A stretch of DNA of 64,000 bases. It comes from Glaucostegus cemiculus (taxonomy: Eukaryota). The notes under the pieces were generated by a model. That model was not told the DNA's origin and made no database searches. It was given only the letters and a program-made list of their open reading frames with translations. Location: positions 5,766,001 through 5,830,000 of the forward strand of contig CDPCPM010000164.1 of NCBI GenBank assembly GCA_976551045.1, read 5' to 3'. Positions 12,173 through 59,970 of the stretch are shown here, one piece after another. Position 1 is the first letter of the stretch, and each line of letters begins with the position of its first letter. The position numbers and the translations under genes were made by a program.

Positions 12173-12303
12173 ATGAAGAAACAAACCGGTGACTGCGGCG
12201 TTAACAAACAAGCCGATAAAAGTACTGGTGACATGGCTGCCCATACCTCAGGCTCCGAACCAGTGACATCAGGACAGCCACCGATTCCACAGACTGCACC
12301 AAG
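12173..12303 (+). CDS. Candidate first coding exon of an unidentified gene: MKKQTGDCGVNKQADKSTGDMAAHTSGSEPVTSGQPPIPQTAP, phase 2
   Basis: Open frame from ATG 12173 (second ATG at 12233 in gacATGg context) to donor caag|gtaatc at 12304; non-repetitive and CpG-rich; no homology recognised. Confidence 0.4.
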
Positions 12304-16049: not shown

Positions 16050-16360
16050 CAGTATCTAATCATTCCAGTAACGACCCAGGACATGAGCCCGGCTGAGATC
16101 TCCCTAGTGTGACGACACATTCTTTATTCTATGTTCTCCCACTCGCTCATTGGCCGGACAACCTTGTTTACAGTCTATCCGCTTGGTCACCCCAGTTTTA
16201 CTCCATCAGAAACACCCTCCCTTCTGTCTGACGAAGGGCCCCCCAACCGAAACTCTTCTTTCTCCCCCCCCCCCCCCCAGATGTGGCCGGACCTGCTGAA
16301 GATTGCCAGCATTTTCTGTTTTTATTTTAAATCTCCAGCTTCTGCAGTATTTCCTTGCAC
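16050..16360 (+). mobile_element. Penelope-like pLTR with degenerate hammerhead core
   Basis: CTGACGAagggccccccaaccGAAA (16228-16252) followed by gacctgctgaagattgccagcattttctgtttt. Confidence 0.65.
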
Positions 16361-18958: not shown

Positions 18959-20149
18959 GTCTGATTTGGATATCAGTTCTCGAGTATGCGCTTCTACTCG
19001 ATTGGAGTGTAGTTTATTGTGGGTCTAGGGGTCCTTGTGGTGAGACATTTATACATTGAGGACTCCGTGAATAAAGTTCTGTTCTCACGCGCTGAGAATA
19101 AGTTGGAAACGTACATATAAACTAATACTTGGATGTGAAGCAAACAAAACCCTACAATACCATCAATGTTCTTAGTGTCTGCTCTTTAACTTCTAGTGTA
19201 ATATCCTTAACGAACTGAACTTTTAACTTCGCGAGTGTCATACTGCCACTCAAACATTCCTGTTTTTCTTATATACCGCATAATATTTTATCACTTTTGG
19301 ACATATCACATTTTGATCTATAGTCAGTGAACACGGACCTGGAAGTATGACCAGCTTATACCGGACATTTATTATTATCACTAAGGTACTTCTGTGACGT
19401 TAGTTTATAAACTAATGAAATATGTTTTTCTTTGTCTTTGTGTGTCTCACAGTCACGATGTGTTAGTGAAATTCGTTGCAGACGATTCACCGTTGCCTTA
19501 AGCTTCATGTCTTCGGTGCCCGGATTTCTTTCTGGCCAAATTAGTAACAAAGTCCTTGAGAAAATCTTTCATTCTCCGACCTTCTTGTCTGCTCCCCCCT
19601 CCCCCCCCCCTTCCCGAATCCAACATATAGAGGTTTTCTTAATCTGTGCTCCGAGGGTCCTGTACAAAGATACCCAGTGCTGGCTATTAATTTTAGAAAC
19701 AAACTCATTCCCAAAACATCCCCACATGTGTTAGGATTACAGTTAAAACTAATTGTACATTTTTTAACATCGGATTGTTTTTAGAAGTACCTATGGACCT
19801 TTCTGCGCTGAAAGCAAACGGCATTTTAGTGTTTTCTCAAATAAATTTAAATATCTATTTATAAATACCCCATAAATGTCACGAAGGAGCAAATTGCAAG
19901 GAGGAATTTTCTACTTCTCGCTTAACGTGAAAATCTCCAGAATCCAAAATCATCAAAATAAAAATTTACAATTTTATTCCAGGGTCTGATTTTCACACGA
20001 TTACAACGAGGCCACAAACCGGCCCTGTTGGAGTGAGAAACGTTCTGGAGGTATTCTAAACATGCGTGTTCCTCTCAGAATAAAATAAGGCCCCTTTGCA
20101 AAGAAAAAGACCAGAAGCACAAACTATTCCTCCCTCCCCAGCCTGAAAT

Positions 20150-22430: not shown

Positions 22431-22829
22431 ACAATATGTTGTTTCACAGAGGTATGTGTTATTGGCTCCGTCTGTTTGTTTACATGTTTACACCACAGGT
22501 GCTTGCCACCTCCCTGCATTAGAGAAGGGGGAAAGCGACCAGTGCCCTCAGTGGAATAGGCACATAAAAGTCTTGGTTGATTTAGTCAATGTTAGATTTT
22601 TTTTCCAGTAGATATTATTTTGGAATACAGTTTGTGAGTAATCTGAGACAAGATATGTAAATGTGGTGTACCTGGGAGGAGCAGGTCTCTTCGGACATAG
22701 AGTTCCCAAAATTTTTGCCCACTGAGGGGTGGGTTTATTATGGATTAACTGACAGTGAATCAATGTCTTGATTGGTTAACAATCTCATTACTGCTGCAAC
22801 ATATTACTACCAGAATAGTAAGTGAACAA

Positions 22830-23210
22830 GATCCCATCCTTTATTCCTTGGTCCACTGCCCTCTCCTACCGGATTCCTCCTCCTTCAGTGCTTGGCCTCT
22901 TTTACCTATCACCTCTCAGTTTATCACATCTTCTCCCCCCTCCCCCACCCACCTACCTTCCCCCTCTCATCTGGACTCACCTATCACCTGAACTGACCTA
23001 TCCCCTGCCTGTGTGTGCTCCTCCCCCTACCTGCCCCCTCACCTTCTCATTCTGGCTTCTTCCCTCTTCCTATCCAGTCCTGATGAAGGGTCTCGGCCCG
23101 AAACGTCGACTGTTTATTTCCCTCCATGGATGCTGCCTGACCTGCTGAGTTCCTCCAGCCCTTTTTTTTATGTATTACTCCAGATTCCAGCATCTGCAGA
23201 ATTTCTTACG
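22830..23210 (+). mobile_element. Penelope-like pLTR (pyrimidine-rich tract, hammerhead, conserved 3' block)
   Basis: C/T-rich tract, then ctgatgaagggtctcggcccgaaacgtcgac...gatgctgcctgacctgctgagttcctccagc...cagattccagcatctgcag. Confidence 0.85.
23075..23112 (+). ncRNA. Minimal type I hammerhead ribozyme motif
   Basis: Helix I CAGUC/GACUG; core CUGAUGA plus one extra A; helix II GGGU-cucg-GCCC; GAAA; palindromic ACGU helix III; predicted cleavage after GUC (C23107). Confidence 0.75.
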
Positions 23211-23869
23211 TCAAGTGAACAAGATGGATTTTGGGCCTCATGGCTTTTGCTTATTGCTGTCAAAGTGTGATTCTTCTTGTAGTTTCTAAGGAATTGCCTT
23301 TTTTTGTTTTCTGTCAAGTTAACAGGGTGAGGAGGCATTTCTCTTTCATGTCTTGCTACAATATTTTGATTTTTTTAAAAATTCTCGCAAAATGTAACTC
23401 CAAAATATATCTGTTTGTAAAAAATCTAGTTCAGGGAGACTTGTTTCTCTTTGCCTTTCAAAAATGCTCATTTACACACATATTCGGTATGAACCTCAGC
23501 AATCGTTCCTCTATCTTCTGGCAGGGGAAGGCAAAACAGGGGTTTTAAGTCATAAAATTAAACCCCAGTCATTTAGGGATGACATCAGGAAGCAGCTCAT
23601 CATATGAGTGATAGTGGAAGCTCCAATCTCCATTCCCCAAAATGCTGCTCAGGTTGGTGGTCAATGAAGTCTTCTCAGTGGAATCTGGGAAATCCTGACT
23701 AAATGTTCAGACTGAGGGCAAGCAATGGCACCAGACAACTTCTCTGATTTGAAAATTGATAGCTGATTGGAGACGAAATGAAAGTCATGTCTAGACGCTA
23801 AAGATGAACTCTTGATTTCCCAATCTAACTCATGGCAGTTCTTTGCATTTTTTTGTTTACCTGGACTAC

Positions 23870-24250
23870 ACTTATCATCGAGGAGGGGATACAGGAGCCT
23901 GAAGACCCACACTCAACGATTGAGAAACAGCTTCTTCCCTTCTGCCGTCAGATTTCTGAAGGGTCCATGAATCCAGGAACACTACCTCGTTATTCCTCTT
24001 TTGCACTATTTATTTATTTTTGTAATTTATAGATCTTGTGTCTTTGCGCTGTAGTGCTGGCACAAATTTCATGTCATGTATATCAGAGATAATAATTCTG
24101 ATTCTCTGTAGCTACAACACTATATTCTGCATTCTATTTTCTTTTTACTACCTTAGTGTACTTATGTACGGCATGATCTGCCTGGAGGGCACACAAACAA
24201 AGGTTTTCACTGTATCTTGGTACATGTGACAATAATAAACCAAACCAACC
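23870..24250 (+). mobile_element. Rex1/Babar LINE 3' ends (two adjacent tails)
   Basis: acaggagcctgaagacccacactcaacgattgagaaacagcttcttccc (RSLKTHTQRLRNSFFP); tails gataataattctgattct and catgtgacaataataaacc. Confidence 0.75.
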
Positions 24251-24284
24251 AAATCAGCTATCAATTTTAGGGGGGTTTTGAAAT

Positions 24285-24580
24285 TCAAAACAACTGCAGA
24301 TGCTGGAAATCTGAAATAAAAACAAAGTACTGTAAACAGTAGAGGGCAGGCAACATTTGTGGAACAAGTAATAAAATTAATGTGTTAGGTCAACAATGCT
24401 TCATCAGAACAGGATTGAGCTTTGATAGGCAACAACACATGTAGATTAGGCTAAAATACGAAGTAACCATAATCTAATTAAATAGTTGAGCTAAAAACAA
24501 TCTGCTGGAGGAACTAGGCAGATTGAGCAGCATCTGTGGGGGGCGGGGGGGAAAGAAGGAATTGCTGATGTTGCGGTCAA
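24285..24580 (-). mobile_element. Two Penelope pLTR fragments
   Basis: ctgcagatgctggaaatctgaaataaaaaca...cttcatcagaac, and ctgctggaggaactaggcag...gcagcatctgtgg. Confidence 0.6.
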
Positions 24581-24689
24581 TAGTTGAGCTGCTTGGAGCA
24601 TCTAAGTGACATATTTCTGTCCTCTGTATAAATGGGAAGGAAAACACTCCAGGCATTTAACTTTTGGCTAAATCTCACTGTTAATGGAA

Positions 24690-25710
24690 CTGCCAGTTAA
24701 ACACTTCTTTCTGCAGTTGAGAATCTGTGCTCCATCCGCTATGGCCACACTGTCCTTGTCCTCCGCTGTCAGGGTGAGGCTAAATGCAAACTAGAGTAAC
24801 AGCACCTCGTATTCCACCTGGGTTGTCTACAACCCAATGGCATGAATACTGATTTCTCCAATTTCAGGTAACGAGCTTCCCCTCTGTCCTTTTCTCTCTC
24901 CTCCTGATCTACTCAGTTCCTCCTCCACCGATCCCAGCTCCCTATCACCTAGTTCCTTTCCCCTTCTCCACCCTCTCCATATGCCCATCACTTAATCAAT
25001 ATTCCCACTCAAGACACAAGAGTCTGCAGATGCTGGAAACCTGAGCAACACCTGGCACTGGGAGGGTCTTGACCCAAAACGTTGACTATCTATTTCCCTA
25101 CATAGATGCTGCCTGACCCACTGACTTCCTCCAATGCCTTTGTGCATTACTTCACCCACTGGGTCTCCTCCCCCTAGAACTATGGCACAATACAGGCCCT
25201 TCGGCCCACCATGTTGTGCCGTCCATCAAACCACACCTCACACTATCTAACCTTTTCCTCCCACATATCCCTCTATTCCACATTCCTCCATATGCCTATC
25301 CAACAATCTCTTGAACCTGTGCAACTGATACCATCTGCCTACCCCACCTCCCTTATTTGGTTCCATGCTCCATCTTCCTTCCCTATCAGATTCCATCACC
25401 CGCAGCCCTTTGTTGTCTCCACTCATCACCTTCCAGCCTCTTATCGCTGTCTCCACCATTCCCTCCTCCACCTGCCTACCACCCCTCCTCACCTTGATCT
25501 ACCTATCCCTTGCCAGCTCTTGCTCCACCCCTTCCCCTCACCTCTTCAACTGACTATCTCCCCTCTATCTTTCTGTCCAGATCAAGGGTCTTGACCCGAA
25601 ATGTCGACTGTCCATTTTCCTCCACAGATGCTGCTTGGCTCGCTGAGTTCCTCTAGTAGTTTGGTTTTTTTTTGCTCCAGACTCCAGCAGCTGCAGTCTC
25701 TTGTGTCTAC
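24690..25710 (+). mobile_element. Penelope-like element 3' end (GIY-YIG C-terminus plus pLTR) with nested pLTR and CR1 insertions
   Basis: EAKCKLE*QHLVFHLGCLQPNGMNTDFSNFR* at ~24775-24871; degenerate hammerhead at ~25575-25610. Confidence 0.8.
25176..25325 (-). mobile_element. Short young CR1 3' end nested in a Penelope pLTR
   Basis: Minus-strand RFKRLLDRHMEECGI, same subfamily as 26801 and 47385. Confidence 0.85.
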
Positions 25711-26765
25711 ATTTTTTCTATAGTTTGGCTCAGAGAGGAATTTTTTTTTCACTTTTAAATGTGTACAAATATCTTCTTAAATATCCCTGGATAAAAACCA
25801 AATTATGTTTGACTGGTTACTTTCAGATAGATATAATTGGATTAACTTTTTCAAAAAGACTTGCTTAGATCATATTAACCAAGGGCCAGACATATCATGA
25901 ATTCAGTCAATCTAGTGTTACAGCTTTCCAGTCACTATGTGGGTGCAGTGCAATTTAATATTTTGCAGTTCAGTTTAAATTTCACAAGGCCAAATCTTTC
26001 TTATTGATCAATCACTGGACCCATTCAACGACAACATTGTATGCTCTTGCAAAACCCTATTGGCTTCAGAGAGTGTTAGTTGGAAGTAACTATTTAACTG
26101 TTGTCGGTTAGTTCCTGAAACTTGTGTAAACAAGACATTGGATTGGTTGAAATGACGGTTTGGATGACTACAGGTCTCAGCTGCTCTAAGTCAAGACAAA
26201 CCGAGATTGTACTTTTTGAAATGAATTTCTGTGGGACATTGTACAACTTCCTGAGACAGCTGAATGTTTGGTAAAGCTGACAGAGCAAACTGGATATTTT
26301 AATACTTCCTAAGTTTGGTCAGTTCACTGAAACCCATTAATAGTTTCTGCAAGGTTCAAATACCATTTTGCAATATCAGATTAAAACTTCTGATTTCCAA
26401 ATTTTCAAAAATGCCTTCCTGAATCTAATTTTAACTTTCTGAAAACACAATGATAAAATCATAGCTTCTTAATTTACATTAGAGCTATAGAGTGCTAATT
26501 ATCTAATTTCTAAAGCACCATAAATGTTTATGAAAGTGATACTTCATTTTAAGCCATTAAATTATTTTTAGTTTTAAATTTTATTTTAAAATAAGGATTC
26601 AACCAGTCCTGTTGCCCTTGCCCCCGGATACTTCTGTCATACTCAGTCCAAAATATTCCTACCTGCTTCAAATGTTATTTGCTTCAATTTCACAAACTCC
26701 TATTTCACCTTCACTCCAGTGCTGTAATGTAGATTGCCATGCTGACTGGCAATAAGTCCCTTCAG

Positions 26766-36260: not shown

Positions 36261-36654
36261 GCTATCTTTTTTTCCTGTTTGTTTATTTTTTGGGGGATCC
36301 TTAATGGCCTTTGAGAAGGTGGTGGTGAACTGCCTCCTTGGACTGCTGTTGTCCTTTTGGTGCTGTTGGGACAGCAGTAGCCATCTCCTTCATTCCCATA
36401 ATGTTTGAGAGATGACCCATGGCTAGGTAGTTTCAAGATTGATGAAAAACCTTGGGATGAGCATTGGGAGAAGGTACAAAGGATGAAGGACTTCAGTTCT
36501 GTGGAGTGACCAATGAAACTTGATAATTGTCCATAGAGTAGAGATGGCCAAGAGGAGATTGAACAGAGATGTTCAAACTTATGAAGGATTTTGAAATGAG
36601 AGGAAACTATTCACCTGGCTATGTGACAGAAGACAGAGTAAGGCTAAGGGAGAA

Positions 36655-36890
36655 ACACACACAAAATGTTGGACAAACTCAGCAGGTCAGGCAGTACCTA
36701 TTGGTGTGGAATGAACAGTAGAAGTTTCAGGCTGAGACCCTTCATCATGTCCAGGACACGGTGAAGGGTCTTGGCCTGAAATGTCAACTATTCATTTCCC
36801 TCCAATAGATGCTGCCTGACCTCTGAGTTCCTCCAGCATTTTGTGTGTGTGCTGCTCCAGATTTCCAGCATCTACATTCTCTCTCATGTA
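36655..36890. mobile_element. Fold-back pair of Penelope pLTR ends joined at their hammerhead ends
   Basis: Arms 36655-36752 and 36754-36850 are imperfect reverse complements around the axis tgtcc-a-ggaca. Confidence 0.85.
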
Positions 36891-45826: not shown

Positions 45827-46061
45827 TGTAGCAGCCAGCAGGGTGCGACTTAAAAGAACACGAGGACACGGAGACTCGATCGAGCATGTTTTTAATAACT
45901 CACCAAAAGCCGCACATATCCTGAACTACAAAAAACATGGCCGGCGGAAGTGACGTCGTACTCCCGCCAGAAGTCCCGCCTTCCGGCACTATCGCAGGAA
46001 CTTGCGCGTTTCCCCGCGACGGCCGACGGCATTTCAGATCCCGATATCGTGAGTCGCTACA
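45827..46061 (-). mobile_element. Solo LTR (Gypsy-like), 235 bp
   Basis: TGTAGC...GCTACA termini, 4-bp TSD ACCC (45823-45826 / 46062-46065), ATTAAA on the minus strand, very CpG-rich. Confidence 0.85.
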
Positions 46062-50199: not shown

Positions 50200-50760
50200 A
50201 CATTCACTGTTCCACAGTGGCTCACATGAACTGCAATGTGTGCATCTACAAGAATCCCTGCAGCAACTCACCAAGGCTTCTTCTGCACCTATAATCTGTA
50301 TCACCAAGGAAGATCTGGGAATAGATATGATTCCTAGTTTCCCTTCAATTCATACGGTACCCTGGCTTGAAAAGAGAGCTCATAGATTCTTCACCAAAAC
50401 TGGCTCAATATCCTGGAGCCTCTCCCTTTATCACTGCTGTGGGAGTAGGTTTGCTACAGACTGTGGCAGTTCAAGAAGATTGTTTACCATGAATCTCTCA
50501 AGGATAGTTAGGGATGGATAATAAATGCTGAGCAAACATTGGAATCTCTCAGGCCAAGGAGCATCAATGGGAAGAAGAACAGAGAGGGCTTTTCAAGTCA
50601 TGAACCCTTCATCAGAAGTCCACAATAATGCTGCCTGACTTGCTCAATGCTTCCAGCATTTTATGTTTTATCTTGGGTTTGCAGCAGCTGCCGTTTTCTA
50701 TTACAGTTAATATGACAGTATATGCTGGCCTTGTTAGTAATGCCACCATGTTCTTGAATA
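50200..50760 (+). mobile_element. LINE family B 3' end with nested pLTR fragments (~50540-50700)
   Basis: ctgcagcaactcaccaaggct...aatatcctggagcct...ttagggatggataataaatgctg; cccttcatcagaa / tgctgcctgacttgct. Confidence 0.6.
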
Positions 50761-53084: not shown

Positions 53085-53900
53085 AATAAAACCCTGCAGA
53101 TGCTGGAAATCTAAAATATAAACAGAAAATGCTGGAAATACTCAGTAGGTCAGGCCACATCTTCGGGGAAGAGAACAGAGTTAACGTATCAGGTCAAAGA
53201 CCCTTGGTCACAATTTGGAAGGAAACTTGTAAACTGCAGGGTGGATAGGAGAGAGAGAGTGTCTCTGATAGGACAGGACTGGGGTGACCATGGGGATATG
53301 CTGTAAACAAGGTTGTCTGGCCAGCGAGTGAATGGGAGCAGCTAGAGAGTGAGACCACAGACAGAAGTATGTAGGAGCTACAAAAATGGAGACCAGGAAG
53401 ACACGCCTGGCAGGTCGGGGTGTTACAATGAGCCCCAATGCAAGCTTGAGGAACAGCACCTCATGTTCCCTCTGGGCACATTGTGACTTTCTGGACCCAG
53501 TGATGAACTCCACAACTTCAGGGATTTAATTTCTCGTTCTATGTCAGCTGACCATCTGTGACATTGGCTCAACTTGTTTGTATTTTTTTCCTTCCTTCCT
53601 TTTCTTACTCTCCCCCTCAGTGGAGGGCATTCCCAGCCTGACCTGCCAGGCATGTCTTCTTGCTCTGCATTTTGTCTATGTTTTCCCTCTCTGACTGTTC
53701 CCATTCACTCATTGGTCAGAGCTCCTTGTATGCAGCATATCCCCATGGTCACCCCGGCTTTACCCATTCAGAGACACCCTCCCTGCAGCTCAACAAACTT
53801 CTCTGATGAAGGGTCTGTGGTCTGAACCACTGAGTCTGTTTCTCTTCCCACAGATGTGACCTGCTGAGTATTTCCAGCATTTTCTGTTTTTTATTTTAAA
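53085..53900 (+). mobile_element. Truncated Penelope-like element: inverted pLTR, GIY-YIG C-terminus, direct pLTR
   Basis: ~300-bp inverted arms (~53110-53420 / ~53630-53895); centre CKLEEQHLMFPLGTL; ctgatgaagggtc at ~53803. Confidence 0.85.
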
Positions 53901-54674
53901 CACCAATATGAGTTGATTTGAAGGTAGGTTCCAGCTGGAAGGAATACCATCCAGTCCATATAATGTGTCTACTTCTAATGACTAAAAATATCCTTCAGTA
54001 ACTTATACATCTGAAACAAATATGACTGTCTCCTTAAAATATTTTATTTCTTCCCTAACTACTTAACTCAAAACAAATGTTTGTCTACCATTCATGAAGT
54101 TATGGGTGATGCAGGTGTATATATAGTACTGAGTGAAGGCTGTATTTAGTGCAAAAGCTGTGGCTGGGACAGCAATTTATGTACTTGTTGTCATGGGGAT
54201 CTGTGTCTAGCTTCTCCCCTTCTGCTAGATGTATCTGTACAAACTGGTGTTGAGCAAAGTCAGGGGGCACTCAATTTAGACATTCTAATCAGGGCCTTTT
54301 TGCTTCCCCTGCTGTAGATTCAAAATTTGCATGGAACTGCTCCTGTTAATGTAGGTTATTCAGACTTCTCTAAGCTGCTCTCTACTGCATTTCCACTTCA
54401 TGCCACAGTATTTTTTAATGTAGAAGTATATTTGAATTCCAATGCAGATATTTAATCCTGGATTACTGGTTACATAAAATGGTCTCATATTGCATGTCTG
54501 CAATTTGCTGCCATTGGCAAGTTTCTGTGGTGATGATATTATAAGCTATACATTTACAGCTGGATTAATGTTAAAACACTGGACAGGCATTCACCTAATG
54601 GGTGTATTTGTATTCACAGCTAATAACATTCAATAATAACTTCAAGCCATGTTTAATGTCAGTATCTTGGATGA

Positions 54675-57319: not shown

Positions 57320-58350
57320 AAAGAAAGACTAGCTTTTCTAAAGTGCCCTTCCTAGTGATGGGTATTTCAATGAACTGTGCAGACAATTAAGTGGTTGTTG
57401 AAGTTATAATCACAGTTGTGTTGCAGGAAAAACAGCAGCCAAACTGCATGCAGCAAGCTTGCATGAACAAGAATGGGTTGAATTTCACTGATCTCTAGAG
57501 AAGGAACACTGGCAGCTACAGTGATTATGTTAACACATTCCAGACTTCCATGCCTGCCTATTAGAAGTCAGGTGCCAGTTCATCTGAGCTCCTGACATGC
57601 CCTTGGACTCACCACGGAGTCCAGCAGTGGTCCTGTAATGTACCAAGCAGAGGGATCAGATCCACTTCCTACCTGGCCCCTCAACCTTACATCAGGCATA
57701 GAAAGTGGATCTAATCTGGCCTGTTCATTTGAATTGGGTCACTGAAACACACTAAAACAAAATAAATGAAGACTAGTGCTTTTTACAAAAATATATTTTA
57801 ATCACCATTAATGATTTTTAGTTATCTTACATTAGTTAAATATGGCTTTTAAATGGTTTTATTTTTTAAATTATTTAAATAAATTGCAACTGTTTCCAAA
57901 TGTGTTTGATTATCAGAGTCATTTGAAAATAGTGCTGTCACACAGCCTTCAGAGTGCATCCATGGACTGTCCCTGGGTTCCCACTGCCTGTCCCTTAGTT
58001 CCTCAGCTTGTTGCTTGCTTGGCACCCTGATACCCCATCTCCTTACGGAATGGCCCCAGCAACAAAGTTGTGAGCAACGGGGAGCCACGGAGCTGCCAAT
58101 GGTAAGTGAAACGGCAGGAGGTGGATCTGGCCAGATCCTGTGTGGTTCAGCCGAGTGCAATCATGATCAGATACTCAGATTTTAGGGATGTTGATGGAGA
58201 GGTAAATATTGTCCATAACATCGAAGAGAGCCTTTCTGCTTTTCTTCAAACCAGTGCCTTCAGTCTTTTACATTCATTTGATAGGCCACCTGTCCATCAG
58301 TGCAGTAGTTGGTGTGCTGTAACCTGCAGCACAAGAGCTGGGAAGTGAGA
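57320..58350 (-). mobile_element. Deu-domain SINE split by a ~680-bp insertion (57475-58152) with short terminal inverted repeats
   Basis: SINE sequence stops at gcagcaagcttgcatgaacaagaat and resumes at gcaatcatgatcagata...gatgttgatggagaggtaaatattg; insert ends gggttgaat / gttcagcc. Confidence 0.5.
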
Positions 58351-59469: not shown

Positions 59470-59970
59470 GTGTCAAGTTGAGTTTATTGTCACGTGCACA
59501 AGTACGGTGAGGTACAGGTACAATGAAAAACTGGCTTGCAGCAGCATCACAGGCACGTAGGTTCAGACAACACACAACACAAATTATACATAAAATATAC
59601 ATAAATTATATGAGAGTGAAGAGACAAAAAGGACTGTGCAAAACAATGCAATGGTGCAAAAAAACCCCACAATCAGAGACAAAGACACAAGAGAGTCTGC
59701 AGATGCTGGAATCTGGAGCAACATACACAAAATGCTGGAGGAACTCAGCAGGTCAGGCAGCATCTATGGAGGGAAATAAACATTTCGGGTCGAGAATCTT
59801 CATCAGGACAATCAGAGACAAGTCCATGGTAGTGCAAGAGGTGGTCCGTAGTGTTCCATTGCTGAGGTAGGATTAGGTTTGTACAGGTCGGTTCAAGGTC
59901 TTGATGGTTGTAGGAAAGTAGCAGCTCCTGAACCTGGTGGTGTTGGACTTCAGGGTCTGGTACCTGTATG
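59470..59970 (-). mobile_element. Rex1/Babar LINE 3' end hosting a pLTR insertion
   Basis: gagtttattgtcacgtgcacaagtac...gtaggaaagtagcagctcctgaacctggtggtgttggacttcagg. Confidence 0.8.
59683..59807 (-). mobile_element. 125-bp hammerhead-initiated pLTR unit with 14-bp TSD
   Basis: acaatcagagacaa at 59669-59682 and 59808-59821; the minus strand starts cCTGATGAagattctcgacccGAAA. Confidence 0.85.

Follow-up and report, generated by a model that had tools for sequence, protein, structure and literature searches.

A sequence-intact minimal hammerhead motif in a lone, truncated insertion of likely Penelope-like origin

The hammerhead motif, its insertion and its surroundings

In the window (the whole stretch of 64,000 nucleotides analysed here) a minimal type I hammerhead is located on the plus strand at 23075..23112, as found by direct reading, a type I descriptor and comparison with copies placed in register. 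Helix I is formed by CAGTC (23075-79) and GACTG (23108-12) with 5/5 Watson-Crick pairs, the core by CTGATGA (23080-86) and GAAA (23100-03), and helix II by GGGT (23088-91) and GCCC (23096-99), which pair at 4/4 positions around the loop CTCG (23092-95) and include the G10.1-C11.1 pair (G23088-C23099). An extra unpaired A (23087) is situated between positions 9 and 10.1, while CG (23104-05) followed by TC (23106-07) separates GAAA from GACTG. The sequence ACGT (23103-06, positions 15.2-16.2) is palindromic and the hammerhead has no monomer helix III. A previous sequence-only reading had proposed this structure, and its complete core, both helices, the ACGU palindrome and the placing of the cut at 23107/23108 all proved correct.

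When the descriptor was run on both strands of the window this motif was the single match, and in Markov-shuffled windows an equally strict match appeared in 0/30 cases (one looser match in 3/30), which rejects a chance motif; the family pattern gave 3 matches in the window against 0.00 expected. Rfam returned nothing in the window at gathering score and none of its hammerhead families at E<=10 within 22500-26000, and when metagenome, viral and prokaryotic collections were scanned with the pattern there were 0 matches. The motif is confirmed as a real, sequence-intact minimal type I hammerhead.

The hammerhead is carried by a single 380-bp, 5'-truncated end piece, likely of a Penelope-like element (PLE), at 22833..23212 (+), delimited by target-site duplications (TSDs), homology and a read-depth gradient. 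The left TSD, AAGTGAACAAGAT (13 bp, 22820..22832), is identical to the right one (23213..23225). The piece consists of a 242-bp pyrimidine-rich 5' part, assigned to the pLTR, the hammerhead and a 100-bp family tail (23113..23212) ending 105 nt beyond the predicted cut site, and a search between the TSDs for a second hammerhead or tandem partner found none, the motif being present once. The copy at 25340-25716 is homologous to the insertion along its length (z 9.0). An ATG is located 25 nt upstream of the predicted cut and its frame stops after 21 codons. A polypyrimidine tract with CAG (23053..23077, +) forms a candidate 3' splice site that shares bases with the 5' strand of helix I; by a crude score the acceptor at 23077 ranks 13 among 4,222 plus-strand AGs, and at 23072 most of the family carries T, which makes the tract better. 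Splicing at 23077/23078 would take away 3/5 helix I bases, as in D. virilis Penelope.

At least 29% of the window is repeated within the window, and we take most of these repeats to be CR1/L2-like LINE pieces. A Pfam search for a host gene among 292 non-repeat ORFs (>=48 aa) gave three matches, all below cut-off, one of them to a CR1-type RT piece and the other two likely due to chance; the homologue search with a 109-aa ORF near 12 kb was blank, and a crude splice-site scan of the window gave few and unconvincing exons. By eye, an ATG-led candidate first exon with donor was seen at 12233-12303 (+) and a strong acceptor near 19452 (+) with a stop after 15 codons, possibly opening a last coding exon from 19453; CpG is raised from 12 to 21.6 kb. 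A plus-strand gene, if real, may thus end before the hammerhead. A CpG-rich, promoter-like stretch at 45900-46056 contains CCGGAAGTGACGTC, has a GTGAGT donor on each strand and resembles, by eye, a bidirectional promoter; a minus-strand gene starting there, if reaching 23 kb, would put the hammerhead antisense. At 57999-58101 (+) a further candidate exon was noted, which is GC-rich, has a GTAAGT donor and gave no Pfam match. The sense orientation to a candidate host transcript that the sequence-only reading had proposed was not confirmed by these searches; sense, antisense and intergenic positions of the hammerhead are all conceivable.

Relation to Penelope-like elements and to other copies

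The insertion likely represents a truncated PLE end, as judged from its sequence features and relatives. A neighbouring insertion contains, at 24752..24871 (+), what protein homology identifies as the broken C-terminus of a PLE GIY-YIG endonuclease ORF, with 24 proteins matched at E<=1e-3 by a full phmmer scan; a word-index search with the same ORF-tail peptide, unlike that scan, gave no match. Profile and protein matches further revealed an older family unit at 53086..53916, in which an inverted copy, an ORF tail (~53421-53522), a 3' UTR, a hammerhead remnant (53798) and the family tail stand in line, and this second ORF tail matches the same C-terminus as the first (53%). Both match the C-terminus of a database relative (P0023) having a C-terminal GIY-YIG endonuclease, internal cysteines and a CX2-5CxxC linker, and through this one relative of a neighbouring ORF fragment the source element is probably of Neptune type. 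The GIY-YIG tail is absent from the focal stub, the Pfam match of the neighbouring tails is below cut-off, and neither a PLE RT nor a full ORF was found in the 64-kb window. Alignments of the focal 5' part with the UTRs following both ORF tails were not significant (z 1.9 and -1.2), so the PLE assignment is based on the hammerhead and tail held in common, together with the gradient of truncation and the pairs in inverted order.

Insertion traits of EN+ PLEs are present, with 5'-truncated copies, inverted adjacent copies and variable TSDs (13 and 14 bp), and head-to-head pairs are found at 36.6-36.9, 50.5-50.7 and 53.1-53.9 kb. According to the available part of Craig et al. 2021 (PMC8557442), the Neptune clade of EN+ PLEs shares 5' truncation, inverted adjacent copies, variable TSDs and a GIY-YIG at the C-terminus, for the latter of which the neighbouring fragments are candidates here. 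At 36649-36884 and 50535-50696 the stub pairs are joined head-to-head at the hammerhead, and the junction at 36649-36884 is palindromic, TGTCCAGGACA, in place of both C3-U4 starts. One database protein (P0001) combines a rhodopsin-family GPCR body with a C-terminal PLE endonuclease tail and is likely a gene-model artefact or an exonised repeat.

In the available portion of Cervera and De la Pena 2014 (PMC4209133), minimal hammerheads (min-HHRs) are described in the pLTRs of metazoan PLEs, including the fish elements Xena, Poseidon and Neptune. The motif studied here resembles these in its core, the extra base 9/10.1, the G10.1-C11.1 pair, the palindromic 15.2-16.2 and a helix I of 5 bp (4-5 bp being the min-HHR criterion), and all four recurring min-HHR traits given there are matched. 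Thousands of dispersed single copies and, at the 5' end of helix I, a site resembling a splice acceptor are likewise shared, while helix II has 4 bp here and 7-8 bp in Schistosoma. The host of the focal copy is likely a cartilaginous fish, judging from the repeat types; shark, Callorhinchus and Leucoraja are absent from two of its supplementary files, and file 1 may list cartilaginous-fish motifs. These likenesses, together with the PLE endonuclease tails of related copies, support the earlier proposal of a Penelope-like pLTR origin and of the use as a dimer that a palindromic helix III implies.

A closer comparison is offered by PAc (Poseidon of Anolis carolinensis), whose hammerhead, in the part of Frangieh et al. 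2024 (PMC11167929) available, cuts in vitro only with PLE protein, its mutants leaving in vitro insertion unaffected and no RNA-seq ends being reported at the site. PAc and the focal insertion would have in common, besides a pLTR hammerhead, copying that starts downstream of it and an uncut RNA as template. In PAc the copying start lies 111-118 nt and the cut 26 nt after the ATG, compared with a cut 25 nt after the ATG and an end 105 nt past the cut in the focal copy; PAc is, however, arranged in tandem with an intact ORF whereas the focal copy is a lone stub with an ATG frame of 21 codons. Animal non-LTR retrozymes, as far as described in the portions available (PMC7229834; bioRxiv 10.64898/2026.07.22.740005), also are type I, PLE-derived and in need of two motifs, but form tandem units of 170-400 nt that have circular RNAs and whose hammerheads are mostly canonical, in contrast to the single TSD-flanked stub. 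The conserved intronic hammerheads of amniotes (PMC7229834, available part) are comparable to the focal one as hammerheads possibly acting on a host transcript. They are few and highly conserved, whereas the focal motif is one of ~10^4 decaying copies without monomer helix III. Amniote intronic hammerheads can fold as monomers; a monomer-competent host intronic hammerhead was rejected for the present motif, which has no stable helix III. A literature search for cleavage of host pre-mRNA by dispersed PLE min-HHRs found none, which is not proof of absence.

A profile search of the window revealed 21 family pieces, 9 on the plus and 12 on the minus strand (no strand bias, binomial p 0.66), of which 13 could be placed in register, the rest being tail-only pieces or too worn. 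Only one of the 13 registered copies has all 12 core positions, in agreement with the claim that 23075..23112 is the only copy in the window keeping every core base. On the same strand a hammerhead remnant at 25051..25088 has 5 core positions broken, and the copy at 25573..25610 has a broken core (U4, G8) with an intact substrate side, making it the only plausible cis partner, in the substrate role only, with a cut that would fall at 25605/25606. The copy at 16223 (+) has the core bases present but pairs only 2/5 positions in helix I and 2/4 in helix III. On the minus strand, the stub at 59683-59807 (125 bp, with a perfect TSD of 14 bp) begins at the helix I edge; its hammerhead (59806) keeps CUGAUGA and GAAA, but 7 nt are deleted after GAAA and helix II is broken.

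Decay of the family in related species

The state of the family was analysed in a DNA run from another species (X14, 1,922 Mb read), with 21,815 reads placed on 23060-23130. Reads at least 80% like the focal copy were kept and pooled over all copies, giving marginal counts without linkage, and this identity limit leads to too low a count of divergent subfamilies that have compensatory changes. Going from the 5' end of the insertion toward the hammerhead the depth rises from 661 to 1,853 in two upstream bins and to 18,326 over 23010-23143, with 0-4 in the unique flanks, indicating 22,000-49,000 family copies in that species for an assumed genome size of 2-4.5 Gb. In 1,150 and 1,017 of the 21,815 reads the sequence ahead of 23076 and 23077, respectively, is an unrelated flank (agreement 0.3); many family copies begin at the helix I edge (23075-23078) and head-to-head joints cluster there.

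The catalytic G12 is changed to A in 5,788 of 21,112 reads (27%), as often as the loop CpG bases are changed (18% and 23%), and the other CpG positions behave similarly (C11.1 26%, G16.2>A 26%, C15.2>T 24%, G1.1>A 22%, C17>T 20%). Among non-CpG core positions U4 is altered in 20% of the reads, 16% having U4>A; this change (23081), also present in the 25573 copy, likely marks a subfamily whose core was broken when it spread. No partner-side change of at least 4% was found in helix I or II of the X14 reads, despite loss of G1.1 in 22% and change of C11.1 in 26%, and the sole structure-compatible non-CpG polymorphism is at 23096, which is A in 61% (U-A) and G in the focal copy (U-G). In the window alignment, with 6/14 rows having a 5-nt loop out of register, helix I/II covariation was 0.209 compared with 0.216 when shuffled, 299/500 shuffles being as high. 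The covariation of helices I and II that the sequence-only reading had put forward as a refutation test was negative in both data sets; compensatory changes are a published min-HHR trait across families, whereas none were seen within this one family.

Assuming independent sites and 3% change at the eight unlisted core positions, ~44% of the X14 copies are estimated to retain the core, ~25% core and palindrome and ~12% all 8 CpG bases. An intact focal copy is then expected by chance with p ~0.12 per copy and ~0.54 over 6 comparable copies, and since about a quarter of the family copies are estimated to be intact, one such copy per window is what would be expected. A special status of the sole intact copy, as suggested earlier, is not needed, chance being sufficient (~12% for all 8 CpG bases, ~25% for core and palindrome), and was rejected because catalytic bases decay like loop CpG bases. 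A contig of a relative (X5 record 12) spans 23182-23896 and is ~91% alike with 63 other letters; 31 letters only lie inside the element, in the tail, the hammerhead being beyond its reach. This sequence comparison suggests that the insertion is shared with a species ~9% diverged, and the focal copy, old enough for such sharing, still has every catalytic base, which chance explains although selection may have contributed.

Three RNA runs from a further species contain family reads on both strands, with G12>A in 18-23% as compared with 27% in the DNA run. The dead G12A form is not enriched, and the difference, which was not predicted, is not interpretable as selection since the species differ. 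A joint between 23075 and 23101 on opposite strands was noted in 109, 66 and 14 reads of the three RNA runs and in 2 of the DNA run; a fold-back at the hairpin may have produced it as an artefact, or it may stem from a single locus transcribed in that species.

Folding, partners and possible cleavage

The folding stability of the motif is unremarkable (z -1.6; 10/200 shuffles as good). For the 38-mer alone a rod makes up 73% of the ensemble and the open hammerhead 2%, and in the model the rod pairs G5-A6-U7-G8 with C15.2-G16.2-U16.1-C17 (probabilities ~0.95), which would hide both the core and the cut site. The active double hammerhead is predicted at -19.9 kcal/mol; two rods reach -25.4, which places the active homodimer 5.5 kcal/mol above them, and the best dimer reaches -33.7. 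When the whole 380-nt insertion is folded both helices are lost (P 0.03-0.04), while local windows of 60-150 nt give 0.42-0.93 for helix I, 0.30-0.54 for helix II and 0.37-0.61 for the rod, and with global and local folding differing in this way the folding in context is model-dependent. Nearest-neighbour energies omit non-canonical core pairs and under-rate hammerheads, and the energies given here exclude tertiary core contacts.

Taken together, it is highly probable that this likely PLE end carries its sequence-intact hammerhead as silent cargo at this site, intact by chance. From PLE biology, an RT-endonuclease would have nicked the target, initiated copying ~105 nt downstream of where the ribozyme cuts and broken off 380 nt later, and as the insertion DNA crosses the cut site the template RNA would have been uncut or re-ligated. 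Judging from the reads of the relative, the ~10^4-copy family would in this genome too decay at CpG regardless of catalytic importance, so that some copies would stay intact by chance. In a lone transcript the catalytic GAUG is predicted to pair with CGUC in an inactive rod, and cleavage would depend on another intact copy and likely on PLE protein, both of which the tandem transcript of the source element would offer and this site lacks. Host RNA would likely remain uncut, no neighbouring copy having intact the parts needed in a partner.

That a partner copy pairs with the hammerhead and host pre-mRNA is cut at 23107/23108, as the sequence-only reading had envisaged, appears very improbable. 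The focal core, helices and palindrome are all intact, thousands of intact family copies are likely and family RNA occurs in a related species, making a trans partner conceivable, and in the available portion of PMC4209133 a lone min-HHR is inactive while dimers cleave weakly in vitro. The double hammerhead swaps helix I (established model; PMC4209133, same portion), so a cut at 23107/23108 needs the core of the partner, and among the other same-strand copies 0/6 offer a usable one, five being core-broken and 16223 (+) poorly pairing, in addition to the predicted cost of the active dimer. In the three RNA runs no end pile-up was listed and the sense-side depth drops by ~1% across the site, as in DNA, the test being weak with other species, pooled copies, an uncertain library strand and a threshold of one fifth of the depth. 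An asymmetric cis dimer, in which the focal copy as the enzyme half cuts the 25573 copy 2.5 kb downstream at 25605/25606 in a plus-strand transcript, is given equally little credence. The pairing is formally complete (helix III 4/4 with one G-U, helix I 5/5), yet the pair reaches -14.5 kcal/mol against -20.8 for two monomers (a cost of 6.3), to which a rough ~12.5 for loop closure is added, and opposite-strand copies are predicted to pair far more strongly with the focal copy (-36 to -201 kcal/mol).

An effect on the host by exonisation at the cryptic 3' splice site (23077/23078) and not by catalysis would agree with the strong pyrimidine tract and CAG at the candidate acceptor, with D. virilis PLE introns ending at helix I (PMC4209133, available part) and with P0001, where the fusion between a GPCR and a PLE tail indicates that such tails do enter gene models; it is nevertheless most unlikely, the splice score being crude and favouring pyrimidine-rich repeats and no spliced read having been seen for the locus. 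Hardly any weight is given to the copy being a non-LTR retrozyme unit, or the source gene of a SINE-like family cycling via circular RNA. The short end in high copy number would fit, and the available part of bioRxiv 10.64898/2026.07.22.740005 traces animal retrozymes to PLE pLTRs and reports them for the one chondrichthyan it includes, but the focal copy is a single unit without tandem repeat, so that no monomer can be excised, its hammerhead is minimal and not canonical, and family 5' ends vary as truncation predicts. A retrozyme array was rejected, one motif being found between the TSDs and no tandem units with complete hammerheads.

With silent cargo as the preferred reading, the hammerhead at 23075..23112 is a further copy of the motif described in 2014. 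The focal copy, with its intact motif and exact TSD, is a clean natural substrate for addressing the role of PLE hammerheads, and the read data measure the genomic loss of the catalytic G12 directly, at the neutral CpG rate. It is a very unlikely prospect that scattered PLE stubs complement each other (through the 25573 copy or trans copies), a fossil family of 10^4 copies then making up a protein-gated network cutting host nascent RNA, but if paired stubs did cleave host RNA this would be a new route for transposon debris to act on transcripts.
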